Assembly: GCA_963827235.1 (NCBI GenBank)
Contig: CAWHAE010000015.1
Location: forward strand, 64,001-128,000
Source: an uncultured bacterium
GTDB taxonomy: Bacteria; Chloroflexota; UBA5177; JANWHV01
Reading direction: 5' to 3'
DNA: 64,000 nucleotides
How positions within the stretch are numbered: position 1 is the first letter of the stretch; every line of letters begins with the position of its first letter. Positions 31,725-54,800 of the stretch are shown in pieces. The notes under the pieces are model-generated. The model saw only the letters and a program-made list of their open reading frames with translations. It made no database searches and was not told the origin of the DNA. Made by a program: the position numbers and the translations under genes.

Positions 31725-32649
31725 AGGTCAGCATGGTGCGCCGGCCTGCCGCGTCATAGGTCTCGTGCAGGTGCATACTCACCTGGCCCGCTGCCGGCGT
31801 CGCCGTGGCCGGGGTGACCGTGCCGCTGCTCGTCGCGGTGGCCGTGGGCTCCGCGGCCGGCAGGCTGTCGGCGGCGATCTCCACCACCCGGCCGGCATCG
31901 CGCATGGTCAGCCACAGGTTGCCGGCCTCGTCGAAGGCGATCCCCGCGGGCACGCTGCCCGCCGGCTGGTCCAGCTGGTACTCGCCGATCCTGCCGCCGG
32001 CGTCCAGCTGCCCCACCATGCCGGCCTGCTGCTCCGTGAACCACAGGCTGCCGTCCGGCCCCACGGCCAGCCGGTCTGCTCCCGAGTTGGCCGTGGGCAC
32101 GTCGATCTCGCAGAAGGTGCCATCGGCGCTGAGCCGGGCGATCTTGTCGTTCGCATACTCGTTCATGAAGACGCTGCCGTCGGGCGCCCTCGCCACGTAG
32201 CCGTTGCCGCCCTCGCCGGCCAGGGAGACCGGGTACTGGGTGACCTGGCCGCTGGTCGTGTCCAGCTTGCCCAGGTAGGCCGGCATGTCGCCCGTGTACG
32301 CCAGCGCGAACCACAGCACGTGGCCCGCTCCCAAGGCCAGGCCCATCGGCGACCCGGTGCCGCCGTCCTGCACGGGCAGGGGGTCGTCCGCCAGCAGGGT
32401 GCCGCTGGCCTCCACGTGGGCGATCGAGGAGCTGCCCGTGCTGTTGACGGACAGCCAGAAGGTGCCGTCGCTGTCCTGCGCGATGCCGGCCAGCTCAGCC
32501 CAGGTCGTCGATGCTGGGCAGGGAGACGGCCGTCTCGGTGCCGTCCTGCTGGATGTGGAAGAGCTCGTCGTAGTAGCCGGCCGCCCAGATCGAGCCGTCG
32601 GCGCCCAGCACCATGCCTGCCACGATGTCGTAGCCGGGCGCGGTGAAGC
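31725..32649 (-). pseudogene. Rhs relic: Vgb-like propeller segment plus first distal YD strand, without core or toxin
   Basis: Near-identical to about 54701-55640 of the main rhs gene. Frameshift near 32515. Truncated after YDAAGRRTMLT. Confidence 0.85.
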
Positions 32650-32860
32650 ACTCTCTACACGGCAGTGGCAGGCATTGGTGCCGGACACCATCACCCCACT
32701 TCCACAGCACAGGCGCCAAGGTTGCAGCAGGGAGGATGCGCAGTGTTTCAGCGTGCTGTGCCTTGGGGTGCAAGCGCCGAAGTACTTTGGGCCAACACAA
32801 TGGACCTACAGGCCGGCACAGGGTCTGGCCGCTGCGTGCAGGGTAAGGAGCGCGAACTAC

Positions 32861-33226
32861 TTAGTACCTGTCGCCGGCAGTCGTGCTCGGCAGGTCGAAG
32901 GCGATGAGGAGTGCCTGTTCGATGCCGGCGATAGCGGTGGCGCTGAGCATGCCGAGTCTGCGCAGCAGTCTCCCGTGACTGAGCACCCGAACCTGTTCGC
33001 CCAGAGCGATAGAGTCTGTGCTGAGACCGCCATCAGGACTATGCAGAAGGATTTGGCTGGGGTAGATGCGCTGCCCACGGTAGGTCGTGCAGGGGACGGC
33101 GAGCACTATCCCGCTGTTCGCATTGATCGCGTTGCGGGAGACGATGACGACCGGTCGACTGCCTGCTTGCTCGGACCCTTCGGTCGGATCCAGCCGCGCG
33201 CTGTACACCTCGCCGCGCAAGATCAT
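32861..33226 (-). CDS. mazF: Type II TA toxin, PemK/MazF endoribonuclease
   Basis: RGEVYSARLDPTEGSEQAGSRPVVIVS, VPCTT, EQVRVLS. Confidence 0.92.
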   Translation of the reverse strand: MILRGEVYSARLDPTEGSEQAGSRPVVIVSRNAINANSGIVLAVPCTTYRGQRIYPSQILLHSPDGGLSTDSIALGEQVRVLSHGRLLRRLGMLSATAIAGIEQALLIAFDLPSTTAGDRY

Positions 33227-33495
33227 AGCGGCTCAGCCGCCTGAAGTGCCTCCCAGCTCGAGCGGTCTAGCCCCTTTTCGAGCAACTCGGCTTCGGCGAG
33301 ATACTCGGTGTCAGTCGCCATGCCGACGAAAGCGGCGTCGATCGCCGTGCGGCGCTGCTCCGCCAGAAACCGGCGCAGCGCCTCCGCAAGCAGGTCGTTG
33401 CGCGATTTGGCAACACCCGCCTCAATTGCCCGGTCGGCGGCGTCAAGCAACGCCTTTGGCAGCGCGACCGTGGTGCGCGAAACGTCAGAGTTCAT
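33223..33495 (-). CDS. Ribbon-helix-helix (CopG-type) antitoxin
   Basis: RTTVALPKALLDAADRAI...SRNDLLAEALRRFL. ATGA overlap with the toxin gene. Confidence 0.85.
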   Translation of the reverse strand: MNSDVSRTTVALPKALLDAADRAIEAGVAKSRNDLLAEALRRFLAEQRRTAIDAAFVGMATDTEYLAEAELLEKGLDRSSWEALQAAEPL

Positions 33496-33751
33496 CGGCG
33501 TCAAGCCCCTTCTTGGCATCAGGATCGATGCTTCGAATGATAGCAGATACGGTGCGAGATGATACAGCGTGCAACAGCCTTCGCTGGGCTGTGCTGGCTG
33601 AAAAGTCCATCCGGCTGTGTCAAGTAGCGCGAAAAGCTGAATGGGAAGTTGCCTGCTCCTTCATGCTGATGGAGGCAATTCGCACCTGCGCCCTGAGCTT
33701 TAGGTAGCGCTACTCGGGCGGACGGGCTTTCCGGCCAGCACAACCGGTGCC

Positions 33752-33828
33752 GCTCAGGGTCACGTATCGGTGATCACCGTGCGGTTGCCTGCCCCGTCGT
33801 AGTGGTCCTGCTCGCTGCTGCCATCCGG
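33752..33828 (-). pseudogene. Tiny Rhs relic (about 75 bp)
   Basis: tgatcaccgtgcggttgcc...cctgctcgctgctgccatccgg matches the PDGSSEQD.YD.AGNRTVIT segment at about 54310-54368. Confidence 0.65.
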
Positions 33829-34079
33829 TCCCCGGCGCCTACTATGTGCGCACACGCGATATCGTGATTAGGAAAGGCAAGCACGAGCAGCCTGACGAGG
33901 AGTACGTGTGCTCCACGACGCCTACTCGGGCGTAACGGCCACGCCCGGGCGGCCAATCTGCCCCTCGCCGATTGTCAGGTCCGCGTCGATGTTGGCGCCT
34001 GTCTGCCCCTTCTCCAGCGCATACCCTGGCCGCACGCCTACGGAAATAGGACGTATCCAGGACGGCCGGTCACTCTGGT

Positions 34080-34598
34080 TCACGCCTCGCCTCGCTCCAG
34101 AAGCTTCCTCACCGCTACAAAAGGCGGCTCAGAATCATTGCGCCCTCGACCGCGAAAGCAGTAGTGATAGGCTCGAGACTCAATGTTGCGGCACACAAAC
34201 TTACCATCAGAAGCAATCCGGTAACTGGCAAACTGCATAGCGCTGCTTCCTAGAGCATGGGCTATGTCGCCAAACCGTGGTGCCACGCCTTCGGGCATAC
34301 ACCACCCAGGAATGTCCGAATCCGTTCCCTCATCGGCCTCGATCTCCAGGAACCAGGCGCGTCGAGCCGCACCCTCGCTTGTCGCCCACATCACTCCAGC
34401 CACATACGGACCGTCCGTCCCCTCCTCGACATCTTGACCCCTAGCTCGAATGGGGGTGACAGCCAAGTATGCGTCAGCGCCAAGCCTGTAGAGAACAGCG
34501 CGCGTTCTGCCTCTAATCATGTTGTCGTCGCGGATCTGGTCAACAACTTCTGCTAAGGGAGTCCAAATCGGCATTGTCAGGATCCTGCCAAGTTCCAT
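34080..34598 (-). CDS. Putative immunity protein of orphan cassette E
   Basis: 172-aa ORF starting 13 nt after the toxin stop, with a GGAGG RBS overlapping that stop. No recognisable family. Confidence 0.7.
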   Translation of the reverse strand: MELGRILTMPIWTPLAEVVDQIRDDNMIRGRTRAVLYRLGADAYLAVTPIRARGQDVEEGTDGPYVAGVMWATSEGAARRAWFLEIEADEGTDSDIPGWCMPEGVAPRFGDIAHALGSSAMQFASYRIASDGKFVCRNIESRAYHYCFRGRGRNDSEPPFVAVRKLLERGEA

Positions 34599-34611
34599 GG
34601 GACGCTTCCTC

Positions 34612-37600
34612 CTATTTCAGATAGGGATAGATCTGGCCCGTATAGCTGCCGTTGTTCAGTGCGTTCAGGGCCTTGTCCCGGAGCGTGCCTTGCGGAAGCG
34701 CGTTGACTGCAGCTCGCACATCGGGCAGCCATCTCGCCAACTTTCCTGCGGGCATGGAACTGGCGTAACGACCGCCTGGACCCCGGTATTTCGCATCCCA
34801 TGCAACAACCTGATCCTTGACCGGGTCGTACGTGATGAAGTCAGGCCCTGGAGCGGTCACCGCGCCGGGCGCTTTGACGCCCATCTGCCCAAGATCATTC
34901 GTCGCGTACTGGTAGCCTTGGTACTCGCCAATTGCGGCGTTCTGATGGATTATGTTCGCGCCGCAATAGGCATTATGCACCAGCACGCGTGCCAACCCCA
35001 CGAAATAGTCGTGGTCGGCGGCCACGGTGAGCGTGTACACCACAGCGTACCCGGCGTGCTCGTCGATGGCCAGGATCGTGACGTCCTTGCCCGCCTCGGT
35101 GCGTAGCGTGTCGCCGACCCGCAGCTTGCCGGCTTCCACCCAGTCGGCGTGCTTGCTGCCGGGGCCAGTATCCACGAAGAACGGATGGTTGGCGGTCACC
35201 TTGATCGTGCTGCCGTCCGACAGGTGCAGCGCCAGCAGCGGCGAGACCGGTTTGACGATGAGGGCTTGCACCGGTTCCGCTTCTACCTGCTTGGTGGCAG
35301 GGTTCTCCGCCAGGACCTTGTCGCCGACCTTGAGATCCTCGATGGCCACCGAGCCATGGTCCGTCTGCACCAGCGTGCCCGCCGGGAAGCAGGTCTGATT
35401 GGTGCCCCTGCACGCGCCGACACAGGGCGTCTCACTCTGGTCCCCAGTCTCCGACTCGCGACTCAGTCGCTGGAACGCTTCGGTGAGCTTCTGCCTGGAG
35501 GCAGCGGTAGCCTCCTTGACAAACGTCCCGGCAGCGTCGAGGAACTCCCAGTGCCGCATCCCCTGGTCCGCGATGGCACCGATGATACTGCGGAGGCCGG
35601 CCACGGTCGGCGAGACAACCTTGCTCCCGACGTAGCGCAGGATGGGTCCGCCGACCAGACTGGTGCTGACGACAAGGGCGGCATCAGCGCAACCCAGCGG
35701 CCCGGTGTCACGAGCGGTGCATTGCTTGACCGGCATGATGAAGAAGTTGTCCGCGATCAGCGCCGGTGCGTCGATACCGCTTGCCCAGAGGAAGGCCAGG
35801 ATGTGCGAGCCGCCGCTCGACGAGTTGTACCACTGCCGTGTACTCGCCTCATTGCCGTGAATAGCCTCCTCAAGCCAGCCGGCTGCCTGGGACAGCTCGT
35901 CGGCGCCGTTGAGGATGTCGCCGCTGATCGCATTCAGCGCGCACAGGGTGGGCGACTTCTCACAGACGGTCTGGTTCAGGTTCTGGGTGAAGACGATGAC
36001 ACCGGGCTGGAGCTGCCAGGCCTGCAAGAAGGAGCCCGGTGAACGACCGAGCCGGATGTTGACCGCAGGATCACCGTCAAGGGTGGTCAGCGTGGCAAAC
36101 TGGGTGCCGGCCTTGGGCGGGAAGTCGTCGCCGGGCCGGAGGTCCGCATGGACGATGCTACCGGAGCAATCCGGGCTCTCCATGTTGACGTAGTCGTAGT
36201 TGCACTTCCAGGAGGGCCAGAGCATGCCGAACACCTTGGCGTCGCGGATGATCTGGTTGACCTTGGCCGTAAAGCCGTTTCGTGGCGCGTCTGCGCGCTC
36301 GATGTCCCAGTATTCACCGTCCTTGAGGTCGACCACGTCGGCCGCGTAGGTCGATGCGCGCAGAGCCGCCTGGGTATGCCAACAAGACTTGCTCGCGTTT
36401 TCCTTGAGCACCGGGATCCAGAAGCCATACTGGCCGGCATCGCTCAACACGCTGCTGGAGGCGGTGGAGGATGTCCGGCGCCACACGGAGTCCAGGTAGC
36501 CTTGCTGGGCCTGGGCGATCTGACTACCGAAGAAATAGCTTGCCTGGCCACCGATACTGCTTTCCTCGATGTAGTCGCCGTAGTAGTTGCCGGCATCGAG
36601 AGGGAACGTCCACCCCTGTCCACTCGGATCCCTCACATCCGTGGGCATATTCCCCGCGTACTGGTAGGGGTCGAGCGTCACCGGCACCTGCGGGTCGGCA
36701 GGCAGCGGATCCACGCTCTCGAACTGCCCCTCGCTGCGGGCTGTACTCCCGGGCCCGCATGTCATAGGTGCCGGCCGCCGCGTCGTAGTACTGGCCGGCG
36801 AACCCGAAGGGCTGGCTGCCCAGCAGGCCGGCGAGCAGCGTGGCGCCGCTGCCGGTGGACGTGTCCGGGTTGGGCCGCGCGTTGCCCCAGGCGTCGTAGG
36901 CGCCGGCGCCAATGGTGGCGCCGGTGGGGTCGGTGACCAGCCGCACGCTGCCCAGCAGGTCCGTGCCCAGGGTGGTGATGCGACCGGTGCTCAGCGTGTA
37001 GCCCGCTAGCGGTGCCTGGCCGCTGCCCGGATTGAGGTAGGCGTAGTCGGCACTGCCATCGGAGACCAGGTCGGACATGCCGGCCGCCAGGTCCTGCGCG
37101 CAGTTGGAGAGAGTTGGCGTGCCGCTTGAGGCGTCGTAGCTGCGCAGGCGACCGCCCTGCCCGTCGTAGACGAAGGTGAGGTTGGTGGTCGGGCCGGTGA
37201 TGGCCACCAGCTCGTTCCGAAGGTCGTAGGTGTTGGTGATCGTGCCGGTCTGTCCGGTGCTCCCCACCTGGTTGCCCGCGACATCATACGTATAGGCGGT
37301 AGGTTCGCCCGGGCCGACGTCCGAGGCCGTCGAGGCGCTGGTCAGCTCGTCCGCCGCGTCGTAGCTGTTGGCGGTGACGGTGGTGGAGAGGGCATCGGTG
37401 GTGCTCAGGGTCACCGTGCTGGTGATGACGGTGCGGTTGCCGGCCCCGTCGTACGCGTCCTGCTCGCTGCTGCCGTCCGGGTAGGTGGCCGATCATCAGC
37501 TCGCCCGCCGGGTCGTAGGCAAGGCTGGACGTGCCCCAGGAGTCGTCGATACCCGTGCGCTCGCCCGGCCGCGTCCAGGGTGTCCGTCTGGCTGAACAGC

Positions 37601-38327
37601 ACGGTGCCCGAGATGCTCACCGTGGTGTCGATGGCCCGGCCGGCGCTGTCGTAGCCCCACACCTGGCTGGTGCCGTTCGCCGCCTGCAGCCGCGTCAGGT
37701 TGCCCGCCTTGTCGTAGCTCGCGTGACTGGTGTTGGGCGCCGCTCCCGGCTGGGTCAGCGTGCTCACCCGCCCCGCCGCGTCGTAACTCCACGTCGCGGT
37801 CGTGCCCGTCCGGGTAGGTCAGCGTGGTGCGCCGGCCCGCCGCGTCATACGTCTCGTGCAGGTGCATGGTCACCTGGCCCGCTGCCGGCGTGCCGGCCGT
37901 GGGCGTGGCCGTCGTGACCGTGCCGCTGCTCGTGGCGGTAGCCGTGGGCTCCGCGGCGGCAGGCCGTCGGCGGCGATCTCCACTACGCGGCCGGCGTCGC
38001 GCATGGTCAGCCACAGGTTGCCGGCCTCGTCGAAGGCGATGCCGGTGGGCACGCTGCCCGCCGGCTGGTCCAGCTGGTACTCGCCGATCCTGCCGCCGGC
38101 GTCCAGCCGCCCCACCATGCCCGCCTGCTGCTCCGTGAACCACAGGCTGCCGTTCGGCCCTACGGCCAGCCGGTCCGCCCCCGCGTTGGCCGTGGGCACG
38201 TCGATCTCGCCGAACGTGCCATCGGCAGTGACGCGGGCGATCTTGTCGTTCGCATACTCGTTCATGAAGACTCTGCAGTCGGGCGCCGTCGCCAGGTAGC
38301 CGTTGCCGCCCTCGCTGGCCAGGGAGA
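34612..38327 (-). pseudogene. Orphan Rhs cassette E: Vgb fragment, distal YD, core, HINT and PD-(D/E)xK-like nuclease tip
   Basis: Homology to the main gene starts at about 38327, with several frameshifts before the core. PTDVRDPSG ends at 36619-36630. HINT runs CFPAGT...VLVHN (35391-34972). Tip has GPDFITY...VAWDAKYR. Confidence 0.88.
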
Positions 38328-38397: not shown

Positions 38398-39222
38398 CTA
38401 TTGGCGACTATCCCTCCGCGCGCCGGGGATCGTGTTGAAGCTCTCTAGCAACTCCACTGGAAAGCCCGAATCCCGCTGAGGATCCCGCGCAAACCGCAGG
38501 TAGAACAGATCCCTGCCCCAGTGCTCGAGCCGTGCCACGTCCTGGGAGGGCACGGTCGTGGGATCACCGCTAGCAAAATGAGATCTGAGAAGTACATTCC
38601 CCCAGTACAACCGAGGTATGAACCTGTCCATGGTGTATTCACCGAAGCCGTAGTCGTTCCCGGTGCGATCGTGGTACCTCATGTCGATGAGGTCTGACCG
38701 GTATAGACCACCCGCCTTCGGCTCTGACCAACCCACATCGTACTCAATACAACCGTAAATCGCTGACGTCAACTCCGCGAGGGTCCTGGTGTAGCTCTCC
38801 AGGGTCTCCATGCGCTGAGCGATCAGCTCTCTGCGCATAGCTAGCACTACATGGTTGTCCGCGCCTACAGTCGGCTGCTGACTATAAGCGGTCGGTCCGA
38901 GCTTGTGGATGCCCGCGTATACTGCCGGCCAGTCGCTGTCAGAGATAGCCTTATCGAATAGCTCAAAATAGCGAAAGATCCCGCCCTTGATGGCGCCGAG
39001 CCAAGCCTCTAGCAGCTTGTCGCTCAACTGCGCGCTTCGAGGGGCAATATTCCGTGAGCGCGGACGATTGATGCGCCCGCGGCACTTGAGCGGACGACCG
39101 GGGATTCGAACAAACCCAGCAAGTGACTCAACGAGTTCCCGGAACAGGTCGTCCGAGATCACGCTCCTGGGTTCTTCTCTTCCGAACAGCAGGATCGTGG
39201 AGTAGCGAGGTTCCTCCATCAT
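38398..39222 (-). CDS. Putative immunity protein of orphan cassette D
   Basis: 274-aa ORF with an ATGA overlap to the toxin stop. Lower GC than the Rhs core. Confidence 0.75.
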   Translation of the reverse strand: MMEEPRYSTILLFGREEPRSVISDDLFRELVESLAGFVRIPGRPLKCRGRINRPRSRNIAPRSAQLSDKLLEAWLGAIKGGIFRYFELFDKAISDSDWPAVYAGIHKLGPTAYSQQPTVGADNHVVLAMRRELIAQRMETLESYTRTLAELTSAIYGCIEYDVGWSEPKAGGLYRSDLIDMRYHDRTGNDYGFGEYTMDRFIPRLYWGNVLLRSHFASGDPTTVPSQDVARLEHWGRDLFYLRFARDPQRDSGFPVELLESFNTIPGARRDSRQ

Positions 39223-41580
39223 GGCAGCACCAAGAGGCTCTCGGGTGATTCGGGCGGCGGTGGTATCGGTATGAGCTTCCCAGTTTGCGGGTCCCGAACA
39301 TATACGTCGCCTGCATTGCGTATGCGAATTGTTCTTGTAAGCTGAGGATTCTTGTTGGCTGCCTGACCTGGCGTTGTAACCTCTCGGATCGCAATCACTT
39401 GTTTATCCTGTACGACCACGATGTCCAGACGTCTGCCCTGCTCGTCCGCTGCATCGATGATCTTCTTCCCTTTTGAATTCAGAATGTATCGCTCCGTGAG
39501 TATCTTTGCACCGGGGAAATCTTGTTTCACGATTTGCACGGCCCGAGCTTCCCTGGTCATACTAGTCGCCTTGAGTCTCGCTCCCTTGGACAGCGAGGAT
39601 TTCAGCTCATCGCGCTCCGCCTGACCGAGGAGTTCGCTTCTGTCGTTGCTCGTGACAATTACGTTGGTCTCAGCTCGCAGGTCCGCTACCACGCCGTCAG
39701 CGGTATCCGAGTCAAGCAGCGCACTGTCCGCGAAGAGGCTTACCTTGCCGGTCGCGGACAACGCGGAAATCACCTTGATCGGTAACGCATTTATGAGCGT
39801 GCCGAGCAATGCGCGGCCCTGACACCAGTGGTCACTACTTGGGCACTCTGACACGCCACCGAACGCCACCATGTCTATGGCGCAGGCGAGCACGGAGACG
39901 CCCAGTGGGCAGGCGCTTACGGGAGCCACGTTGCCCGGCGTGGGGACTGCGCACGCATTCCCGGCGCCTGGCACCAGCTTGCACACCCGGTAGCCGATGA
40001 TACCAGGGAGTTGTTGAGAAGCGAGAACCAGGTATACATCGGACGCCGTGGACACAAGCAACTGCGAAAATGCGCTGAACACAAAGCGCCTGCCGCTGAG
40101 TTCATCGCCGGTTGACAGGGGGTAGCTCTTGCCTCGCTGCAGGCTGACATGCGGTGTTGCCACGCACTCGGTGCCCCGATGCCAGGACAGTCCACGCTGC
40201 GCGGCACTGAGACCAAGGAGGTTCATGTCCAGGCGCGAACCGATGTCGTAGTCGATGTTGACGATGTCGTACATCTCGCCGTAAACGCTGCCTTGATAGG
40301 GCATCGGGTCCATGCTCACTAAATCAGCGTGAGCAGGCCCCACCAGGTGACCTGCGTTGTCCGGCATGGGGAGCGTCACGTCCGCCATGCTGCTGTGGGT
40401 CGTGTCATGAGAGAGGAAGTCGGTCTCGATACGTTCCTTGATGAGATCCTCGTCCTGCGTGGTAGCACCGCTGTACACGGCCCATCCCTGCCCGCTCGCG
40501 TCCGTCACGTCCGTGGGCACGTTCCCCGCGTACTGGTAGGGGTCGACGGTCACCGGCACCTGCGGGTTGTAGGACTGTGGATCCTCGCTCTCGAACTGCC
40601 CCTGCTGCGGGCTGTACTCCCGGGCCCGCATGTCATACGTGCCTGCCGCCGCGTCGTAGTACTGGCCGGCGAACCCGAAGGGCTGGCTGCCCTGCAGGCC
40701 GGCGAGGAGCGTGGCGCCGCTGCCGGCGGACGTGTCCGGGTTGGGCCGCGCGTTGCCCCAGGCGTCGTAGGCGCCGGCACCGATCAGCGCGCCGCTGGGG
40801 TCGGTGGCGAGGCGGACGCTGCCCAGGAGGTCGGTGCCCAGGGTGGTGCTGCGCTGGGTGCTCAGGGTGTAGCCTGCCAGCGGCGCCTGGCCGCTGCCCG
40901 GATTCAGGTAGGCGTAGTCTGCACTGCCGTCGGAGACCAGGTCGGACATGCCGGCCGCCAGGTCCTGCGCATAGTTGGTGAGCACCGGCGTGCCGCTTGA
41001 CGCGTCGTAGGCGCGCAGGCGGTCGCCCTGCCCGTCGTAGACGAAGGCGAGGTTGGTGGTCGGGCCGATGATGGCCACCAGCTCGTTCCGCAGGTCGTAG
41101 GTGTTGGTGATCGTGCCGGTCTGTCCGGTGCTCCCCACCTGGTTGCCCGCGACATCATACGTATAGGTGGTAGGTTCGCCCGGGCCGACGTCCGAGGCCG
41201 TCGAGGCGCTGGTCAGCTAGTCCGCCGCGTCGTAGCCGAAGCTGGAGGTGCCCCAGCTATCGTCGATGGCCGTGCGCTCGCCCGCCGCGTCCAGCGTGTC
41301 CGTCTGGCTGAAGAGCACGGTGCCCGAGATGCTCACCGTGGTGTCGATGGTCCGGCCGGCGCTGTCGTAGCCCCACACCTGGCTGGTGCCGTTGGCTGCC
41401 TGCAGCCGCGTCAGGTTGCCTGCCTTGTCGTAGCCGGCGTGACTGGTGTTGGGCGCCGCCCCCGGCTGGGTCAGCGTGCTCACCTGACCCGCGGCGTCGT
41501 AGCTCCACGTCGCCGTGTGCCCGTCCGGGTAGGTCAGCGTGGTGCGCCGGCCCGCCGCGTCATACGTCTCGTGCAGGTGC
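39219..41580 (-). pseudogene. Orphan Rhs cassette D with a putative PD-(D/E)xK-like nuclease tip
   Basis: Rhs core and DASG at 40491-40502. Tip has TERYI...GRRLDIVVV...REVT...K..Q. The 5' part has a 153-bp deletion and a TAG at 41217-41219. The C-terminal ORF 39219-41138 is intact. Confidence 0.85.
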
Positions 41581-41643
41581 AGTGGAGATTGAGCCCGAAC
41601 GTCGGGTTCCCTTCAGTGGCTGGCTCGGAGCCCGATCCGTTTT
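41581..41643. repeat. 63-bp non-coding cassette-head sequence, copy 1
   Basis: 62/63 identical to 45197-45259 and abuts the Rhs homology start. Confidence 0.9.
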
Positions 41644-42016: not shown

Positions 42017-42517
42017 CTATGTCAGGGCCTGCGCAGATATCGACACCACAAAAGGGTCCGTTGGACTCGGTTGGTCGTACTCCACCTGCACCCTTGCGTG
42101 CTCCACATGCCAACAGGTGAGCATGCCTGCAATCTCGCCTTCGGGATAGCCATCGGATCCGTACTTACCGGCGAAGATCGGACTCCCGAGCTGTTCTATG
42201 ACAGTGGCTACCACGCTGTCATAGAACTGAGACAGCTCACGGGCAAAGGTGGTGACATCCTCCTCCAGCTTGTCGCCTGGGTAGTCATAAGGGAATGAAA
42301 CGCTCTGCTTCAACCTTGCCTGAATCCGATCAAGTTTCCCTTCCATGTCGAACATAATCTCGATGTCGTATGGGCGTTCACGATCCGCGAATACTAGGCA
42401 AAGGTCGGACGGGCCTTCGCTAGATAACCGAACGTTTGCAGGTAGGATGCACTTAGACCGTGGCATGTGCCAACTCATGCCGAATGTAGTTGGGTTCACG
42501 AGATCGACAGGCGACAC
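42017..42517 (-). CDS. Putative immunity protein of orphan cassette C
   Basis: GGAGG and GTG 42517 lie just after the toxin stop at 42544. Acidic 166-aa ORF. Confidence 0.7.
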   Translation of the reverse strand: MSPVDLVNPTTFGMSWHMPRSKCILPANVRLSSEGPSDLCLVFADRERPYDIEIMFDMEGKLDRIQARLKQSVSFPYDYPGDKLEEDVTTFARELSQFYDSVVATVIEQLGSPIFAGKYGSDGYPEGEIAGMLTCWHVEHARVQVEYDQPSPTDPFVVSISAQALT

Positions 42518-42543
42518 AGCACCTCCAACGTTGTGAACGATTG

Positions 42544-45196: not shown

Positions 45197-45259
45197 AGTG
45201 GAGATTGAGCCCGAACGTCGGGTACCCTTCAGTGGCTGGCTCGGAGCCCGATCCGTTTT
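45197..45259. repeat. 63-bp non-coding cassette-head sequence, copy 2
   Basis: 62/63 identical to 41581-41643. Confidence 0.9.
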
Positions 45260-45579: not shown

Positions 45580-46407
45580 TCACTGCTCAGCGCCGCTGCT
45601 GGGAAGTCTGAGAGGAAGAATCCGCTTCATCACGACCTGCGGAGCTTCCTCGGCCCGGACGGCAGCCTGGGATTCCGGCGCGGGAGCGGCAAACTGAACA
45701 AGCGCATGCCTGGCGAAGTTCCGAACTGAAGGGTCGGCGTCCTGCGCCGCCCTTTGCAGCGCGGCAATGACACCGTCCGACGCAACTCCGGCGTTGCCAA
45801 GGGCACCTGCGGCATTTGCACGCACGTCGCAGAACGGATGGGACAGGGACGCAAGGAGCGCTCCGATCACGCCTGCATCTCGGAACTGCAGCGCGCCGAG
45901 CGCCCAGGCGGCTGTCGCCTGTACGTTGGCGTCCCTATCGGCGAGAGCGGCGAGCAGGGCGTCGCGTGCCTCGCCTGTGCTAAGGCCGAGCCTAGCGATG
46001 CTATCCACGACCCAGCCCCGGATGGAAGGCGACTCGTCGGCAAGCTGCGCGGTCAGGCGATGCAGCACGACTGGATCTCCCTTTCCGATGTCACCAAGCG
46101 CTGCAACCGCCGCTTCCCGCACCTCAGGTTCAGTATCCTCCAGGGCGCCCAGCAATCCTTTGACCGCGCCGGAATCGTGCGATGCCCAAGTGGGCATAGT
46201 CAGAGCAGCCAATTCCCGTACGGACGCGTCGGCGTCGGACAGAGCGTCGAGGTAGGCTGCTGTAGCACGAGTTCTCAGCTGCCCAAGATCGTCTTCCTCA
46301 CCGTCCGCTAAAGAGCGCAGGCTTGCAAGCCCCTGGCGTCGTGTGACAGCATCCTCGGCGGCAAGCGCCAGTAATGAGTCGGCGAAACTCAAGATCTGGT
46401 CGTCCAT
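45580..46407 (-). CDS. HEAT/PBS-lyase repeat protein, candidate immunity protein of cassette B
   Basis: Repeated L.D....VR.AA..ALG units. GGAGG RBS. Lies 160 nt downstream of the toxin. Confidence 0.8.
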   Translation of the reverse strand: MDDQILSFADSLLALAAEDAVTRRQGLASLRSLADGEEDDLGQLRTRATAAYLDALSDADASVRELAALTMPTWASHDSGAVKGLLGALEDTEPEVREAAVAALGDIGKGDPVVLHRLTAQLADESPSIRGWVVDSIARLGLSTGEARDALLAALADRDANVQATAAWALGALQFRDAGVIGALLASLSHPFCDVRANAAGALGNAGVASDGVIAALQRAAQDADPSVRNFARHALVQFAAPAPESQAAVRAEEAPQVVMKRILPLRLPSSGAEQ

Positions 46408-46566: not shown

Positions 46567-48741
46567 TCAATTCGGCATCGGGAGATTGTATGCGATCGTG
46601 GTGTACCCACGGCCCGAAGTATCGGTGTTGACTCCGTCCACGTTGAAGTTGTGGAGGTGGAACCGGACAATCAGCACCGGCTTCCCATTGAGGAAGTGAG
46701 TGTGCCGCGCGTCGGGCCTTGGGAAGCTCTCGTCATGTATGTCCGCGACGATGAGGAAGCCGCTAGCAGCGTATGTCTTCGTGGCCCATGAACTGAAATG
46801 CTGCTGCCCGCCGCTCCGGGAATCGTCATACTGGTTGTCGATCTCGACTGAGACCTCTTCGGGTGAATCCGGAAGCCCGATGTAGGCGATACCGAACAGT
46901 GCTGACAGGTAGGCACCGGACCAACAGTGACTGAACAGGCACCAGGCGCCTCCATGCAGGGCAGGCCAACCCGGGGCGCCTGGGCGGGCAGCAGAGATAA
47001 TGATGGTGCCCAATTCCACCTGGTTCTGCCGGCAATTGCAATTAGTCGCGATTGGGTTCTTGCTTAGCGTCGCTGATACGTTATCGTCGGTGAAGATAGT
47101 CACGTGCCTGAATATGCCATAAACATCCGAGTTAACTGAGAATGGCCCTGACCCGGAGGCGTTCGGTCGCGGCTGTGTCAACACGCCTACCAGGTCGGTT
47201 CGGCGCGTGACATGCCCCTCAATTTCACTATCGGTCATGTAGAAGTTGTTGCCCAGGATACTCTGATCGGCGGCACTGGCCGGCTGGCCACAGACAGCCC
47301 TGAAGTAGCCGTAGGGCCTCTGCCAGAAGCAGCCCTCCCACTTCGCGAACGGGTTGGTCGACGAGGCGCAATTCGCCCTCGTACTGGCATTGACCCACGC
47401 CATGGACCCTTGTACCAAGTTGCCGTAGGCACGCGGGAAGTCGCTCTGCGAAAGGCTCCCATCTGATCGGTACTTCACCTCGACGGCGACGAGATCCATA
47501 TGCCCCGGCAGACTCCCTCTGTAGGCGATGAAGTCGGGACCGCGGGCGCTGTCGCCCTTCGCCAACAACCAGCCCATGCCGACCTGAGGATCGATCGTCC
47601 TGTCCCACTGATCAATTCGCCCGGGCTGCGCCGCACCAAAGTTGGGTCCGGAAGCGATCGAGTATCCGGCCTGCCGGTAAAGCTCTACAGCGCACAGCAG
47701 TGCGTCTTGCGATCGAGTAAGGTTGTTGTCCTCGACCTCTGAGTCGCCTTCAGGCGTGGAAGCCAACCCCGCCGCTGGCATAGATGAGGCAACGATCGAC
47801 AGGCCGCTTTCGGCAAGCATGTCGCGCTGCACGATCTTCCCACTCGGATCCGTCGCATCGGTCGGCCTGTCCCCCGCATACCGGTATGGCTCGTTCGTCT
47901 GGTCGAGCAGCGGGTCCTCGCTCTCGAACTGCCCCTCGCTGGGGCTGTACTCCCGTGCCCGCATGTCGTAGGTGCCGGCCGCCGCGTCGTAGTACTGCCC
48001 GGCGAAGCCGAAGGGCTGGCTGCCCTGCATGCCGGCGAGCAGCGTGACGCCGCTGCCGGTGGACGTGTCCGGGTTGGCTCGCGCGTTGCCCCAGGCGTCG
48101 TAGGCGCCGGCGCCGATGGTAGCGCCGGTGGGGTCGGTGACCAGGCGCACGCTGCCCAGCAGGTCGGTGCCCAGGGTAGTGCTGCGCTGGGTGCTCAGCG
48201 TGTAGCCCGCTAGCGGTGCCTGGCCGCTGCCCGGGTCGAGGTAGGCGTAGTCGGCGTTGCCGTCCGAGACCAGGTCGGACATGCCGGCCTCCAGGTCCTG
48301 CGCGTAGTTGGAGAGAGTTGGCGTGCCGCTTGACGCGTCGTAGCTGCGCAGGCGGTCGCCCTGGCCGTCGTAGACGAAGGTGAGGTTGGTGGTCGGGCCG
48401 ATGATGGCCACCAGCTCGTTCCGCAGGTCGTAGGTATTGGTGATCGTGCCGGTGGGTCCCACGCTGCCCGTCTGGTTGCCCGCGGTATCGTAGCTATAGG
48501 TGGTGGGCTCGCCCGGGCCGGCGTCCGAGGCTGTCGAGGCGCTGGTCAACTCGTCGGCGGCGTCGTAGCTGTTGCTGGTCACCGTGGTGGAGAGGGCATC
48601 GGTGGTGGTGAGCGTGACCGTGCTGGTGATCACGGTGCGGTTGCCGGCGTCGTCATACTGGTCGACTTCGCTGCTGCCGTCCGGGTAGCCGGCGCTGGTC
48701 AGCCCGCCTGCCGGGTCGTAGCTGAATCCAGACTCTACCAC
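46567..48741 (-). CDS. Orphan Rhs cassette B (uninterrupted frame): distal YD, core and a C-terminus with a PD-(D/E)xK motif
   Basis: Homology starts at about 48722. PTDATDPSG ends at 47839-47850. RGPDFIAY...VAVEVKYR, followed by a Cys/His-containing tail. Confidence 0.88.
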   Translation of the reverse strand: MVESGFSYDPAGGLTSAGYPDGSSEVDQYDDAGNRTVITSTVTLTTTDALSTTVTSNSYDAADELTSASTASDAGPGEPTTYSYDTAGNQTGSVGPTGTITNTYDLRNELVAIIGPTTNLTFVYDGQGDRLRSYDASSGTPTLSNYAQDLEAGMSDLVSDGNADYAYLDPGSGQAPLAGYTLSTQRSTTLGTDLLGSVRLVTDPTGATIGAGAYDAWGNARANPDTSTGSGVTLLAGMQGSQPFGFAGQYYDAAAGTYDMRAREYSPSEGQFESEDPLLDQTNEPYRYAGDRPTDATDPSGKIVQRDMLAESGLSIVASSMPAAGLASTPEGDSEVEDNNLTRSQDALLCAVELYRQAGYSIASGPNFGAAQPGRIDQWDRTIDPQVGMGWLLAKGDSARGPDFIAYRGSLPGHMDLVAVEVKYRSDGSLSQSDFPRAYGNLVQGSMAWVNASTRANCASSTNPFAKWEGCFWQRPYGYFRAVCGQPASAADQSILGNNFYMTDSEIEGHVTRRTDLVGVLTQPRPNASGSGPFSVNSDVYGIFRHVTIFTDDNVSATLSKNPIATNCNCRQNQVELGTIIISAARPGAPGWPALHGGAWCLFSHCWSGAYLSALFGIAYIGLPDSPEEVSVEIDNQYDDSRSGGQQHFSSWATKTYAASGFLIVADIHDESFPRPDARHTHFLNGKPVLIVRFHLHNFNVDGVNTDTSGRGYTTIAYNLPMPN

Positions 48742-48961: not shown

Positions 48962-49089
48962 TAATACTACAGCGACAGTCTGCAAAATCGGCACAAGATA
49001 CGGGATTTTCGAACGGGGTGAACCACAACATATGGCATTTGCAGACGCCCTACAACCTCACAAATCGGTCATGTGTCGCTGTAGTATTA
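48962..49089. mobile_element. 128-bp MITE-like element
   Basis: Perfect 16-bp terminal inverted repeats taatactacagcgaca / tgtcgctgtagtatta, with an AT-rich interior and no plausible gene. Confidence 0.7.
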
Positions 49090-49090
49090 A

Positions 49091-50810
49091 GGGAGCGCCT
49101 CAGCTTTGTGTAGCTGAGGCTGTTGATGTTCAGGCTGAGCGCCGGTGACTGACGGCCACGCGACCCCAATAGCCCTTCCCCTTGCCCCAGGGTTTGCCGG
49201 TGGAGACGATGCGCTGCGGTGCGATCGGCGGTGCTGCGCTGTCGGCGGGCGTCGGATCAGTCGGCGCTGGCGCCGGTGCCGCATCCACAGCCGGCCACAG
49301 GCCGGGCAACGCATCGGCGGCGGGGAGCGCGCGCAGGCGGGTGAGGGGTCGGCTGGCCCAGAACATCGCCCAGCGGCCGTGGCCGCTCTGGTGCAGTGCC
49401 CGCAGGTTGGCGATGGCCTGCGCGCCCTGGGGCGTCCAGCGCATGCCGGCCCCCTTGGCGCGCTTGCTGATCAGCTGCTTGCAGCCGCTCTCCACCGCGC
49501 CCGAACCAATGGGCAACTGGCGGGCCACGAAGCGCGGGTAGTCCAGCCGGTCCGCGTTGTCCGTGAAGTACTCCTCCAGGTTGCGGCGCACGACGTCGTG
49601 CGCTTCCGCGGACAGGTCGGGCCGCGCCAGCGGGGCCTGCAACGCGGCGAGCACCGGCGGCGCGCCCTGCTGCAAGAGGGTGTGCCGCTGTTCGGCCTAC
49701 CAGGCACGCGCCGGCAGGCTGCCCGCGCCATACACCGCGCTGGCTACCTCGGCCAGCTGCTCGCTGGCGTGGTAGAAATCAACGATCTCCACCACCGCAG
49801 TGCCCGGGTGGCTGAACTGCGTGCGCGCCTGCTTCCAGATCCAGCGCGCCCCGTCGGCAATCACGACCACTTCCTGCACGCCGCGCGTGAAGCCGGCGCG
49901 CCAGGCCTCCCGGGTCAGGCGCGGAAAGAAGGCCTCGCTGCACTCCAGCCCGGCGCAGAAGCCGGATGGCCCCAGCACGAGTGTCGCGCGTGCCGTCGCG
50001 GCATCTGCGCGCACCGCCGGGCCCAGCGCCGCCACGCGGCCCACCGTCATCTCGCGGTAGCCGTCTTGCAGGGGCGTGTGCACGCCATCGGTCTCCACCA
50101 CCAGCCGCGTGGGCACCGCCTGCGCCGGCACCGCCCATTGCGTGCGGTCGGCCTGCTCGTGCTCGATCAGCGCACCGAGCCCTTCGGCCAGCCGCCGGAT
50201 GGTCTCCTTGGCCACGTGCACCCCGACGCTGCTCGCCACACTCGCGCGCGCCGCGGCGAAGGAGTCCTGCTGCGCCTGCTCGCACACCACCTGGGCCAGG
50301 CCCGGCGAGAGCTGGCCGGCGCCCAGCCCCAGCACACAATCCAGCGGCGCATGGCCCGCCTGGCAGCGCGCGCAGTAGAACGTGGGCCGCATGAACCGAT
50401 ACTCACCGACCAGCCTCAGCACCGTCCGCCGCCGCTCCCGCCCTACCAGGTGCAGCTGCCGGCCACACTGCGGACAGCGGCTCGCCACCCCTTCCGGCCC
50501 TTGCGCGCGCGCCTGCAGTACCACGCCCTCCACGGCGCTCCCTACCTGCCGCAGCACCTGCTGCAAGGCCCGCTCCCCGGCCAGCAAATCACCCGTCAGC
50601 AGCACTTCCACCGCCGCCCACAGCCCGGCCTCCAGGGCTGCCGCCCCGTCCGCCACCGCCGTCGCCAGAATCCGGGTACGCTCCATCGTGCCTCCTCCGC
50701 TCGGGCACGCGCGGTTGACAGATCGCTTGCCGTGCCCTGTAGCCGAGGAGGCTACCTCTTCGCGCGTTACTTTGCCTTAGCCCAGCCGACATCAATCGTG
50801 GGGCGCACCC
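49091..50810 (-). mobile_element. ISKra4-family (UPF0236-like) insertion sequence
   Basis: Imperfect terminal IRs gggagcgcctca (from 49091) and tggggcgcaccc (to 50810) enclose the transposase. No target duplication seen. Confidence 0.75.
49130..50686 (-). pseudogene. ISKra4-family transposase with one in-frame TAG at 49697-49699
   Basis: CPQCG and CARC zinc finger, ETDG, IADGARWIW, VDFYHASE, LPIGSGAVESGCKQL, GMRW. Both ORF halves share a frame. Confidence 0.88.
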
Positions 50811-50892
50811 AGCCCTGGGTGTGGGGCCGGCCGCCCCCAAGGCATCGCCATCTACGCCGCTGTTTTACGTATCGCCTTTGAGGAACGGAGCA

Positions 50893-51381
50893 TTAAGAGG
50901 GTGGCGCCCGCTTCACGACGGCAAGCTCAATGGGACTGCCAGGCCAAAGCGCGATCCTGTAAGTATCCTCGCCCTCTAGGCCGTCAGCGCTGAGTGTATC
51001 AAGTCCCGCGAAACAAATCCGCACACGGTAATAACCTGGGCTCACCTTGACGATCAGGTCGTCGGTACCCATCTCAGTGATAACTAGCGTCCCCGACTGG
51101 ATGTTGATACCCGTCTCGACGATGTGGTCCCACTGATCGACGTCTGTCTCCGGTTCTGAGGCGCAAAGCTCAACGTGAACAGGCACACGCATGTTCCTGG
51201 CGGTGGCGATATTCAGCAGCCCTGGCACGGCTATCACACGGTTGGCGAGGTTCTGTGGAGTCCAATCACACCATCCTTCGGTCAACTCGTCGTAGTCACG
51301 ATGTCCATCCTCCAGGTAGAACTGGAAGTAGTCTGCGAAGACAGTCAGGTCAGCCCTGTACGTCACCCGACCTCCAGCCAC
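50893..51381 (-). CDS. Immunity protein of the main toxin, Nin/ComJ-like
   Basis: GGAGG and GTG start. ADYFQFYL, VPVHVEL, WDHIVE, SGTLVI, PGYYRVR and YRIALWP follow a NucB-like tip. Confidence 0.7.
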   Translation of the reverse strand: MAGGRVTYRADLTVFADYFQFYLEDGHRDYDELTEGWCDWTPQNLANRVIAVPGLLNIATARNMRVPVHVELCASEPETDVDQWDHIVETGINIQSGTLVITEMGTDDLIVKVSPGYYRVRICFAGLDTLSADGLEGEDTYRIALWPGSPIELAVVKRAPPS

Positions 51382-51434
51382 GTTGTCGCCTCCAAATCCC
51401 GATCAGCCGCGAAACAGCGGCGTAGGCGGCACCA

Positions 51435-51806
51435 TCACCGTGTAACGACGATCTTGACTCTCGTTCCATCGGGAAACCTACTCAAGAGACTGCGGATGGT
51501 CGCGCCGAGCCCGCGATTGTCCAGACGTTGTATCGGCCGAATACTGGCTCCCTTCCCGCCCTCAGCAAACATGGCCATGGGAAACTCATCCCGATCCATA
51601 TTAGGGGTGGTTGCGGTGCCGGCAAGTGACTCAGCGCGCCTCGCGGCTGCCCCGGCTCGGTCTATGGTGAGATCAGAGAACTGACCTGCACTGATCGCGT
51701 CCTCAATATGGCTCAGTGCCTGGTCATACGCCGGATAAGCCTGCTTCGATAGGGTTAGGGTGACAACACCTGTTGACGGGTCGACGTTGACAGGACACGG
51801 CCCCGC
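51435..51806 (-). other. NucA/NucB-like DNase toxin tip
   Basis: HIEDAISAG..LTIDR..A..RR.ESL...DRDEFPMAMFAEGGKGASIRPI...DNRGLG. Confidence 0.85.
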
Positions 51807-54800
51807 GTTGTGCACCAGCACCTCGGCCAACCCGACGAAGAAGTCGTGGTCGCTGGCGACGGTGAGGGTGTAGACGTGCGCCTCGCCCATGTTCCAGTGT
51901 ATGCCCAGCACCGTGACGTCGCGCCCGTCTTCGGTGCGCAGCCGGTCACCTGCCTGCAACTGGCCGGCCTCAACCCAGCCGGGTTTGGTCAGGTCACGGC
52001 CGCTGTCCACATAGAACGGATGGTTGCTCGTCACCTTGAGTGTGCTGCCGTCGGAGAGTTCGAGGGCTAGCAGCGGCTTGATGCCGTCGTCGATCACCGC
52101 CAGCACGCGCTCAGCTTCGGGCTTGCCCTTGGCCGGGTCTTCCGCCAGGATGGTGTCGCCCGCGTGCAGGCTGGCGATAGCCACCAGACCGTGCTGGGTG
52201 GCCACACCGGTGTCCGCCGGGAAGCAGGAGCACGGCAGTTCGCCGGTGGTGCCGCCCTGCGCGGTGCACGTCGTGCCCGAACACGGTTCGGTCAACTGGG
52301 CATTGTCGAGCGCCTTGCCCGCTGCCTGCTCTTCTTGGACAGTGGCGGGCTGCATGTGGCCGGATGGATCCAGCAGTTCCAGGGTTGCCTTGCCATCGTC
52401 GAGCATGGTGCCTTGTGTGTGCAGCACCGCCGTTTCAGCCGCTTCCGCCGCAGCGTCGAAGCCACCGCCCGCCGCCGCACCGGCCGCCAGGCGCAGCAAC
52501 GGCCCGGCCAGCTCGGGAGCAACGAAGGTGGCCACCGTGAACATGCGCACCAGCAAGCCCGTGCGTGGGTCGACGGCGACCTGGATGCTGCCCAAGGTCA
52601 GCGCGGCGAGCTTGGTGAGACCGGCCGCAGCCAGGAGGTCGACCTCCACACCACCGGGCAGCCAGGACGGTAGGTGCACGCCTGCCTTCTTGGCCGCGTT
52701 GAAGTAGTCGGTGGCCGCTTGCTCGGTCCAGTCGCCTACCTGGCCGATCGCGCAGGTGAGATTGGTGAGCGCATCGTGGCAGTAGCTAGTGCTGTCCGCG
52801 TAGACCAGGACGCCGGGCGCCTGGGGCCAGAAGGTTAGCGTCTTGCCGTGGTAGGGTGCCGTGAAGGCGGGGTACTCGTCATCCCCGCCGCCATGATAGT
52901 CAGACGGCCGGATCTCAGGAGTGTAGGGGCCGGCGGTTCCCACGAAGGGGATAGCGGCGCTGCCTGCCGGGCCTGGCTTGATGGTGGGGAACTTCCGCAC
53001 CGTCCACGCGCAGCCACCGCCAACCTTCCACAGGCACTGCTGGTCGGTGATCCATGCCACTCCAAACGTCTTGGCGTCGGCAATGAGCGTGTTCACGCCA
53101 TTGATAACCGAGACCTGCTGTGTCAGCGACTTGAAAGACTGAGCATGCTCGATGTCCCAGAGATAGGTCCCGCGGTCGGTGACGGAGATGATGTTCGCGT
53201 TCAGGGTCTTGCCGATGCTGGCCTTCGCGCAGGCCAGGGTGGGCACCGGCTTGGTGAACACGGGTACCCAGAACTCGGTCTCGCTGGCCCGCGCCACGGA
53301 CCAGGCCGGCGTCTTGAGGGCAGTGGTGCCCTGGTCAGCAGTCGTGGTGCCGACGGCAGGCGACTGCGCTACTCTTGCCGCCGCGGCGGCCATCGCAGTC
53401 TCCTGCGCCGCGCTGACCGCCTCGGAGGGATAGAGCACCACAGCGACCGCGCCCTCGATGGCCGACTGCTGCTCATAGTCCTGTGCGGTGGGCAGCGCCC
53501 ATCCTTTCCCACTCGGGTCCGTCCCGTCCGTGGGCATGTTGCCGGCGTACTCGTAGGGGTCCAGCGTCACCGGCACCTGCGGATCGGCAGGCAGCGGATC
53601 CACGCTCTCGAACTGCCCCTCACTTGGGCTGTACTCCCGGGCCCGCATGCCATACGTGCCTGCCGCCGCGTCGTAGTACTGCCCCGCGTAGCCGAAGGGC
53701 TGGCTGCCCAGGAGGCCGGCCAGCAGGGTGGCGCCGCTGCCGGTGGACGTGTCCGGGTTGGCTCTGGCCTTGCCCCAGGCGTCGTAGGCGCTAGCCCCGA
53801 TCGTAGCACCGGTGGGGTCGGTGACCAGCCGCACGCTGCCCAGCAGGTCGGTGCCCAGGGTGGTGGTGCGCTGGGTGCTCAGGGTGTAGCCTGCCAGCGG
53901 TGCCTGGCCGCTGCCCGGATTCAGGTAGGCGTAGTCGGCGTTGCCGTCCGAGACCAGGTCGGACATGCCGGCCTCCAGGTCCTGCGCGTAGTTGGAGAGG
54001 GTTGGGATCGATCCGGAGGCGTCCTCGGCACGCAGCCTGTCGCCCTGCCCGTCGTAGACGAAGGTGAGGTTGGTGGTCGGGCCGATGATGGCCACCAGCT
54101 CGTTCCGCAGGTCGTAGGTGTTGGTGATCGTGCCGGTCTGTCCGGTGCTCCCCACCTGGTTGCCCGCGACATCATACGTATAGGTGGTAGGTTCGCCCGG
54201 GCCGACGTCCGAGGCCGTCGAGGCGCTGGTCAACTCGTCCGCCGCGTCGTAGCTGTTGGTGGTCACCGTGGTGGAGAGTGCACCGGTGGTGGTGAGCGTG
54301 ACCGTGCTGGTGATGACGGTGCGGTTGCCGGCCGCGTCGTACGCATCCTGCTCGCTGCTGCCGTCCGGGTAGCCGGCATTGGTCAGATCGCCCGCCGGGT
54401 CGTAGCCGAAGCTGGAGGTGCCCCAGCTATCGTCGATGGCCGTGCGCTCGCCCGCCGCGTCCAGCGTGTCCGTCTGGCTGAAGAGCACGGTGCCCGAGAT
54501 GCTCACCGTGGTGTCGATGGTCCGGCCGGCGCTGTCGTAGCCCCACACCTGGCTGGTGCCGTTGGCCGCCTGCAGCCGCGTCAGCTTGCCTGCCTTGTCG
54601 TAGCCGGCGTGACTGGTATTGGGCGCCGCCCCCGGCTGGGTCAGCGTGCTCACCTGACCCGTCGCGTCGTAACTCCACGTCGCCGTCTTGCCGTCCGGGT
54701 AGGTCAGCGTAGTGCGCCGGCCCGCCGCGTCGTAGGTGTAATGCAGGTGCATGCTCACCTGGCCCGCTGCCGGCGTGCCCGCCGTGGGCGTGGCCGTGGC

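Follow-up and report, generated by a model that had tools for sequence, protein, structure and literature searches.

A main rhs gene with orphan toxin tips and candidate immunity genes in an uncultured Chloroflexota bacterium

Loci in which one main rhs gene is accompanied by orphan toxin/immunity modules are already well known, and the closest described systems include that of Salmonella LT2, with its main rhs and orphan rhs-CT/rhsI modules (PMC3967940; general scheme in PMC3482391). The window analysed here, a stretch of 64,000 nt from an uncultured bacterium of the Chloroflexota (assembly GCA_963827235.1, contig CAWHAE010000015.1, positions 64,001 to 128,000), most probably carries a locus of this type, namely a main Rhs polymorphic toxin gene and four orphan modules that would serve competition between bacteria. 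Shared with Salmonella LT2 are the shell of YD repeats, the Rhs core with its DPxG motif, the variable tip of low GC content, the order of toxin then immunity gene, and fragmented orphans without a start or export signal. What differs is the presence here of four orphans with a cargo of 423-690 aa, an insert of about 2,000 aa inside the shell, an inner domain of about 250 aa and, in two modules (A and E), a HINT domain between DPxG and the toxin, with no sign of PAAR or VgrG in the part of the gene seen here.

Other described systems resemble single aspects of the locus. The HINT-bearing Rhs toxins of PMC3482391 likewise set a PT-HINT beside the toxin and have carbohydrate-binding domains embedded among the RHS repeats. 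Theirs are RicinB, discoidin and bulb lectin, with LamG usually N-terminal, whereas here six malectins, a LamG and a beta-propeller stand together in one insert, at a junction conserved with a related locus (L001). Bacterial teneurin-like proteins (PMC13018210) combine a beta-propeller, a YD shell, a variable toxin and a downstream immunity gene, but in them an FN-plug and an NHL propeller precede the shell, whereas here more than 1,000 aa of YD repeats precede the propeller; the Pfam scan of the window reported no teneurin FN-plug/NHL family. Tox-REase-5 toxins go with Imm52, whereas toxin C here scores below the family cut-off, has other motifs and has a partner without an Imm52 match. Finally, toxin A is a close homolog of Bacillus NucB/NucA with the active site intact, whereas the gene behind it comes from a distinct family without a name, whose profile is only weakly linked to the Bacillus inhibitor Nin (ComJ).

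The main gene and its four orphan modules

All parts of the array lie on the minus strand, and the modules are named A (main) to E, with a further partial copy F (Table 1). The main gene extends from beyond position 64000 down to 51435 in two frames that switch near 58850, and its product would exceed 4,200 aa if that break is an error. In order, it encodes YD repeats, the insert, further shell with the Rhs core, the inner domain, PT-HINT and a NucA/NucB domain. The first part of the shell holds 50 YD-like motifs, the last at 60846; an ARAGORN call of tRNA-Val antisense within these repeats (62229-62322, plus strand) is taken as an artefact. The insert begins with a Ser/Thr-rich linker and continues with six malectin domains (anchors at 59520, 59022, 58520, 58016, 57527 and 57029), a LamG domain (~56669-56069) and a Vgb-lyase-like beta-propeller (~55769-54881). 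A literature search for Rhs with malectin and YD repeat, in a library without most subscription papers, returned no paper, and supplements could list such architectures; the titles returned by broader searches included none on a shell insert at a fixed site.

A repeat search of the window recovered a five-member family at 36738, 40609, 44072, 47942 and 53626, which bears out the original prediction of five co-oriented core copies behind one main gene. The coordinates given there (53508, 47839, 43969, 40491 and 36619) are the final bases of the motifs that close each core, DPSG beginning at 53519 (A), 47850 (B), 43980 (C) and 36630 (E), and DASG at 40502 (D). The copies had been described as near-identical; their identity is in fact 84-91% over 734 gap-free columns. 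Against the main gene, core C is 88.3% identical over 1,167 nt and core D 88.8% over 760 nt and 94.9% over 372 nt (B and E in Table 1), and the mismatches at codon positions 1/2/3 number 14/20/52 in B, 26/22/77 in C, 26/15/53 in D and 29/28/92 in E, so that third positions are favoured about 3:1. This level of identity together with the third-position bias argues that the cores are diverged paralogues and not assembly copies. Cores C and D share about 62 nt of leader, which folds no better than shuffled sequences (z 0.45 and -0.19) and was found nowhere else in the window or L001, and orphan E begins 70 nt after the preceding gene.

The two-motif autocleavage site DPxL...DPxG is present in all five copies, with the motifs 22 or 27 residues apart and the variants DPQ and DASG in D; the role of the motif in cleavage at DPxG is described in PMC8636562 and PMC13018210. 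From DPxG to the stop codon every tip is open (690 aa in A), and each is followed by a stop-free open reading frame (ORF) in the same orientation, at a spacing of 53 nt in A, 159 nt in B, 26 nt in C and 13 nt in E, and with an overlap of 4 nt in D. As had been predicted, these small ORFs are unrelated, no two of the five being similar at E<0.05. GGAGG stands upstream of four of them. The GC content is 69% in the core, 61-67% in the inner domains, 53-59% in the toxins and 66% in the flank, and 54-58% in the downstream ORFs of C, D and E, whose spacing, ribosome-binding motifs and GC content fit those expected of candidate immunity genes. Taken together, the domain calls, the cleavage motifs and the layout of tips and ORFs support the reading of an orphan array behind a main rhs gene.

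Table 1. Coordinates of the array features, listed from the main gene towards copy F
Feature	Positions	Strand	Support
First part of YD-repeat shell, at least 1,066 aa	60800..64000	-	PF05593, 30 stretches, 718 bits
Mid-shell insert, ~2,015 aa	54753..60799	-	Pfam Malectin, Laminin_G_3, Vgb_lyase
Second shell part and Rhs core, 414 aa, ends DPxL...DPSG	53508..54752	-	TIGR03696 53.5 bits, cut-off 32.5
Tip A, inner domain and helical linker	52227..53507	-	alignment to tip E; inner-domain profile
PT-HINT autoprotease of A, 140 aa, Cys1, TxxH, ends HN then Ala	51807..52226	-	PF07591 70.3 bits, cut-off 27.7
Toxin A, NucA/NucB DNase (predicted)	51435..51806	-	PF14040 28.7 bits, cut-off 23.8
Immunity candidate A, 162 aa	50893..51381	-	homologs in 27 plasmid records
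ISKra4-family transposase, internal TAG 49699-49697	49087..50776	-	NF033572 on both halves, E=2e-44 and 1.4e-26
Orphan core B, only orphan core with unbroken frame	47839..48726	-	88.8% to main gene over 823 nt
Tip B, 423 aa, PD-(D/E)xK-like motif 47541-47470, then unassigned tail	46567..47838	-	motif
Immunity candidate B, 275-aa HEAT-repeat protein	45580..46407	-	HEAT_2 91.2 bits, cut-off 27.7
Orphan core C, begins where main shell resumes	43969..45197	-	alignment to main gene
Tip C, 474 aa, inner domain, then Tox-REase-5-like domain (motif 42855-42811)	42544..43968	-	PF15648 E=0.033
Immunity candidate C, 166 aa, GTG start	42017..42517	-	no relative found
Orphan core D, same start point as C, ends DASG	40491..41581	-	alignment to main gene
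Tip D, 423 aa, inner domain, then RRLD..EVT putative nuclease (motif 39434-39372)	39219..40490	-	PDDEXK_4 E=0.063
Immunity candidate D, 274 aa, start overlaps toxin stop (ATGA)	38398..39222	-	no relative found
Orphan core E, begins inside propeller	36619..38327	-	90.4% to main gene over 1,731 nt
Tip E, 668 aa, inner domain, PT-HINT, 119-aa GPD..DAK putative nuclease (motif 34848-34786)	34612..36618	-	PF07591, motif
Immunity candidate E, 172 aa	34080..34598	-	no relative found
85-nt remnant of another core copy	33745..33838	-	alignment to main gene
Ribbon-helix-helix antitoxin candidate and PemK/MazF toxin	32861..33519	-	PF01402 E=0.0014; PF02452 81.7 bits
Copy F, sixth partial copy, propeller and shell-resumption point, no core or tip	31725..32649	-	92.3% to main gene over 940 nt; Vgb_lyase 109.8 bits

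Tips, toxins and the genes behind them

The copies had been thought to diverge right after DPSG/DASG, which does not hold. A predicted cysteine-containing inner domain of about 250 aa, missing in B, is common to tips A, C, D and E beyond the motif, and the homology of B and C to the main gene already stops about 70 nt before it. A hidden Markov model of the inner domain, built from seven rows from outside the window and scored against shuffled sequences, gave 54 bits for A (best shuffle 5.3), 110 for E, 24 for C (4.4), 17.6 for D (8.2) and -1 for B. Tips A and E are 31% identical over 622 aa, HINT included, and the regions after DPSG in L001 align with those of the window. The toxins of A, C, D and E are only the final ~120-160 aa of each tip. 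Conserved cysteines accompany an A[DN]-hydrophobic ... [YW]D pattern, which we take to resemble the PD-(D/E)xK core without its lysine. Given that two models, from alignments of 11 and 10 rows, reached mean pLDDT values of 48.5 and 48.9, too low to judge, that Foldseek returned nothing for them at E<=0.001, and that VIA-align gave best Z scores of 5.1, on a generic helical part, and 3.4, no fold is assigned to the inner domain. A profile search against solved structures was empty, and a tblastn search of the inner domain of D against plasmids reached E=3 at best. A pre-toxin or translocation function is what we infer for it. The PT-HINT of E (35391-34972; PF07591 75.2 bits, cut-off 27.7) has Cys1, TxxH and the terminal HN, and it is 69% identical in DNA to that of A.

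The terminal motifs named in the original prediction are all present: NucB in A, GPDF..VEVKY in B, RIDA..EDPKW in C, RRLD..REVTT in D and GPDF..WDAKY in E. Toxin A is clearly a predicted NucB DNase, which matches the NucB structure 5OMT at E=3.4e-25 and keeps the equivalents of H53, D93, E94 and N117, the residues named as the NucB site in PMC5758888. For the gene behind it, a family profile of 14 members matches Nin (4MQD) at E=0.012, Pfam ComJ (PF11033) is matched by two of the 14 (best E=6e-4), and the best solved match, ahead of Nin, is PDB 6I86, an uncharacterised 156-aa protein (E=0.006), a code for which a literature search returned no paper. Thirteen plasmid loci with homologs were opened, 11 of them annotated, and showed NucA/NucB two genes upstream in one and an SMI1/KNR4 neighbour in three. 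Candidate A belongs to a widespread unnamed family that is weakly Nin/ComJ-like. Fusions of Rhs and NucB are also present elsewhere, and the gene after them is an annotated ComJ in one case and SMI1/KNR4 in another; a literature search for Nin, NucA, ComJ, NucB and inhibitor returned no paper.

In the remaining tips the PD-(D/E)xK-like motif reads EVK (B), DPK (C), DAK (E) and EVT (D), with no profile above its cut-off and no match to a solved structure. In tip B it occupies residues 99-122 of 422 and can be aligned to toxin E (41% over 39 aa, pairwise E=6e-5). Tip B found only itself among 1.84 billion representatives and had no plasmid or PDB match, and its residues 190-419 gave no usable ESM Atlas match. 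HEAT repeats, as in the protein encoded behind it, are listed as immunity to Tox-REase-7 in PMC3482391; tip B has no Tox-REase-7 match in Pfam. PADLOC and PHROGs returned nothing beyond HEAT and HINT. The Tox-REase-5 likeness claimed for tip C stands as to its extent (positions 3-94 of the 95-position model) and falls short in score (15.2 bits, cut-off 25), with IDA..DPK in place of the FDG..EAK of that family. Toxin C also aligns at 32% identity over 157 aa with the tip of a Streptomyces Rhs annotated as secreted by the type VII secretion system (T7SS; two plasmid records), and toxin E at 34% over 88 aa with the C-terminal end of a Rhizobium haemagglutinin-repeat protein (one record); both are likely to be of nuclease type. 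Toxin D had no homolog among plasmids, phages or solved structures.

The ORF behind tip C matches no Pfam family at E up to 1, and thus not Imm52; it found only itself among 29 word-seeded candidates and nothing in plasmids. Its supposed resemblance to the partner of the Streptomyces toxin homologous to C was not supported (z=0.5 over 500 shuffles, with non-cognate pairs reaching z=3.9), and a comparison of candidate E with the partner of the Rhizobium toxin was not supportive either. Candidate D found only itself among 1,035 word-seeded candidates and nothing in plasmids, while candidate E had nothing in plasmids and no usable ESM Atlas match. The three new immunity families that had been suggested are possible, but for now they are three proteins without relatives in limited searches, singletons and not yet families.

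Exchange between cores and tips, and a related locus

A scan of species genomes confirmed one related locus among 187 candidate stretches, L001, from the record of a soil metagenome-assembled genome, at 61% identity. A profile search found six proteins among 7,997 candidates scored, two from the window and four from elsewhere. The layout of L001 is like that of the window, with a main Rhs gene with HINT, orphans and an Imm8 gene, and other toxins. Its terminal toxins, at 5951-6301, 9728-10123 and 13100-13827, differ from those of the window and carry no family assignment, and one of them is then followed by Imm8. The shell leaves off and resumes at the same two motifs in both loci, but the insert of L001 differs, comprising 926 aa with DUF7948 and an SBBP propeller, and in an outside protein, P0009, that resumption motif follows an insert of yet another kind.

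Within the window, the 56 informative sites among the five cores form tracts, 16 in a row being shared by B and C. The compatibility of adjacent sites is 0.71 against 0.43 in shuffled data (p=1e-4; p=0.004 after thinning to 38 sites), and every copy shares perfect tracts of 66-168 nt with the main gene. Trees were built from the core (117 columns, 11 rows) and from the inner domain (11 rows, B left out). In the former, the cores of the window, P0009 among them, split from those of L001 at 99/97; in the latter, C of the window joins an L001 orphan at 97/95. Cores thus group by genome and inner domains across genomes, and neither grouping survives an approximately unbiased (AU) test on the other tree (p=3e-72 and 1.3e-5). 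This conflict argues for exchange between cores and tips, by movement of tips or by homogenisation of cores. Orphan-to-main recombination has been demonstrated in Salmonella (PMC3967940). Of the claim that toxin switching occurs here, past exchange is what the mosaic cores and the tree conflict support.

The end of HINT can also be a switch point besides the core, to judge from proteins outside the window. P0005 and P0006 are identical at 297 of 307 positions of the inner region and 130 of 140 of HINT, and differ after HN, with a P0006 tail of only 45 aa that may be cut; P0008 shares 131 of 140 HINT positions with P0005 and ends in another domain. Given the divergence between the two HINT copies of the window, the core is the likelier crossover region within this locus.

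Several further features lie within or beside the array. The ISKra4-family transposase separates pair A from module B, and between this gene and orphan B lies a 128-bp element (48962-49089), bounded by perfect 16-nt inverted repeats, which folds better than shuffled sequences (z -3.6) and is possibly a miniature transposon remnant. The ribbon-helix-helix/MazF pair sits inside the array, between module E and copy F, and could stabilise the region. Right after copy F follows a co-oriented gene (29058-31526, minus strand) for an 822-aa protein, which opens like a signal peptide and contains a Rot1-like domain and propeller repeats of the BNR/YCF48 type. Among the longer ORFs scanned in the left part of the window (25 and 27 ORFs) there were no secretion-system genes; the ORFs there encode sugar transporters, glycosyltransferases, arabinofuranosidases and similar proteins. 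They include a 782-aa ORF (19788-22136, plus strand) in which an ATP-binding cassette permease is fused to a multi-pass membrane domain, either a true fusion or a missed stop, and, at 3267-5667 (minus strand), a copper protein of the sulfocyanin/rusticyanin type beside a thioredoxin-like protein, which hints at an acid-tolerant host. An Rfam scan gave no match.

Mechanism, alternative readings and meaning

From what is known of the family, the working of the locus could be pictured as follows. Since HINT is found with the type II (T2SS) and type V (T5SS) secretion systems, T7SS and TcdB/TcaC export and, as reported in PMC3482391, never with the type VI system (T6SS), the protein would be exported by a non-T6SS route. 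The mid-shell insert would bind the cell surface, the core would cut at DPxG, and HINT would cut again and free a small nuclease that acts in the target cell, while the product of the downstream gene would neutralise the toxin. As the orphans lack a start or leader of their own, they may serve as spare tips, which recombination through the conserved core could place on the main gene; their small genes may give standing immunity, with occasional replacement of the tip, as in Salmonella (PMC3967940). Variation would then be layered, the tip changing at the core, the toxin alone at the end of HINT, and the mid-shell insert between genomes.

A number of observations weigh against this picture of a main toxin gene with spare modules. 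The main frame runs off the window at 64000, which leaves its N-terminus and export signal beyond the window. The same gene has a frame break near 58850, three of the four orphan cores are damaged, and an insertion sequence stands behind the main pair. The last ~250 aa of tip B are without assignment and match nothing, and toxin D is without the catalytic lysine of PD-(D/E)xK; the claim that all tips are of nuclease type is therefore firm for the NucB of A, likely for C and E, which are homologous to the ends of polymorphic toxins, based on the motif for D, and open for B, where it is doubtful. The profile of candidate A did not match the ComJ behind a Burkholderia Rhs-NucB (locus L019), which, with the E value of its match to Nin, makes the Nin/ComJ link weak. 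As for exchange, the tree conflict can be explained by homogenisation of the cores without any movement of tips, the outside protein P0009 nests among the cores of the window, and a main gene carrying any of tips B to E was not found in L001, the one locus from the 187 candidate stretches, or among the four outside proteins, though switched main genes and closer relatives may exist in the metagenome and viral contig collections outside this search.

The alternative that survives best, possible yet doubtful, is that of a decaying relic with a broken main gene and pseudogenes for orphan cores, where only the small downstream genes, together with the MazF-type pair, would still be maintained as an immunity library and no switching would take place at present; it is partly compatible with the preferred reading. 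Decay of this kind would account for the break in the main gene, for core C being out of frame between ~44730 and ~44477 through single-base indels, for the five single-base indels in core E (37957, 37807, 37568, 37492 and 36737), and for the 153-nt deletion at 41236 and the TAG at 41219-41217 in core D, as it would for the ISKra4 gene with its own stop between A and B, the tip-less copy F and the 85-nt remnant, next to five downstream ORFs that are all free of stops. Yet all five tips are also open, over 423-690 codons, and orphans in working loci are fragmented too (PMC3967940). Moreover, an unrelated gene for a sugar-binding protein (23710-25400, plus strand), with a twin-arginine-like leader, is likewise broken into several frames, so that some of the indels, the main-gene break among them, may stem from errors in the consensus.

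It is unlikely that the orphan tips have internal starts of expression and work together with the downstream partners as type II toxin-antitoxin pairs in the cytoplasm, instead of or besides being recombination donors. Internal expression has been shown in Salmonella rhs (PMC7043789), and a conserved in-frame ATG some 150 codons ahead of DPxG is preceded at 5 nt by GGAGG in A (53966), B (48282) and C (44412), but in D and E the same ATG lacks GGAGG, and the residues encoded there may by themselves account for the motif. A promoter scan gave three sites against 2.9 expected by chance, with the terminator count likewise at chance level, and the 5-11 cysteines of the tips, conserved pairs among them, would fit exported better than cytoplasmic proteins.

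There is only a slim chance that the orphan modules are second-half shell subunits that pair in trans with the first half of the main protein, in the manner of TcB/TcC, and exchange toxins at the level of protein. The shared shell junction speaks for such subunits, as does the fact that the resumption point is where orphans C and D, and two of those in L001, have their start and that all three L001 orphans open with hydrophobic, signal-peptide-like leaders (7032-7200, 11069-11210 and 14041-14200; 12-residue hydropathy 2.5-3.0), the first two resembling each other. However, the start points of B, E and F lie elsewhere, and close upstream of orphans B, C and D there are in-frame stops and no hydrophobic leader (hydropathy -0.1 to 0.5). 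The three L001 orphans comprise a frameshifted copy, one without part of its half-shell and a fragment. A bolder proposal would see in this lineage an Rhs chassis of which three parts can be exchanged (a targeting cassette at a fixed point of the YD shell, malectin-LamG-propeller here and other domains in relatives; an undescribed cysteine-containing pre-toxin domain after DPxG, maybe a disarmed restriction-endonuclease fold; and the toxin after HINT), with orphan modules that begin at the shell junction and half-shells bearing signal peptides, as in L001, completing the main protein in trans and switching toxins without DNA rearrangement; at present this seems improbable. That the repeated cores are an assembly artefact, a doubt raised with the original prediction, is hardly credible and is rejected: the contig does show indel errors, but the copies differ by 9-16% with a third-position bias, their tips and GC content differ, and a second genome has the same layout.

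An array of a main rhs gene and orphan modules would not by itself surprise a specialist. Tip B and immunity candidates C, D and E, which have no detected relatives, are cheap to test. Toxin A and its partner offer a compact system in which to ask if DNases of the NucB type can be blocked by a Nin-like protein, the mechanism being unresolved according to PMC5758888. The unannotated domain between the Rhs cut site and the toxin, together with a second protease in some tips, would provide two points of exchange. Further, the variation of the insert at a conserved point of the shell offers a testable answer to how Rhs toxins outside T6SS may select their target cells.

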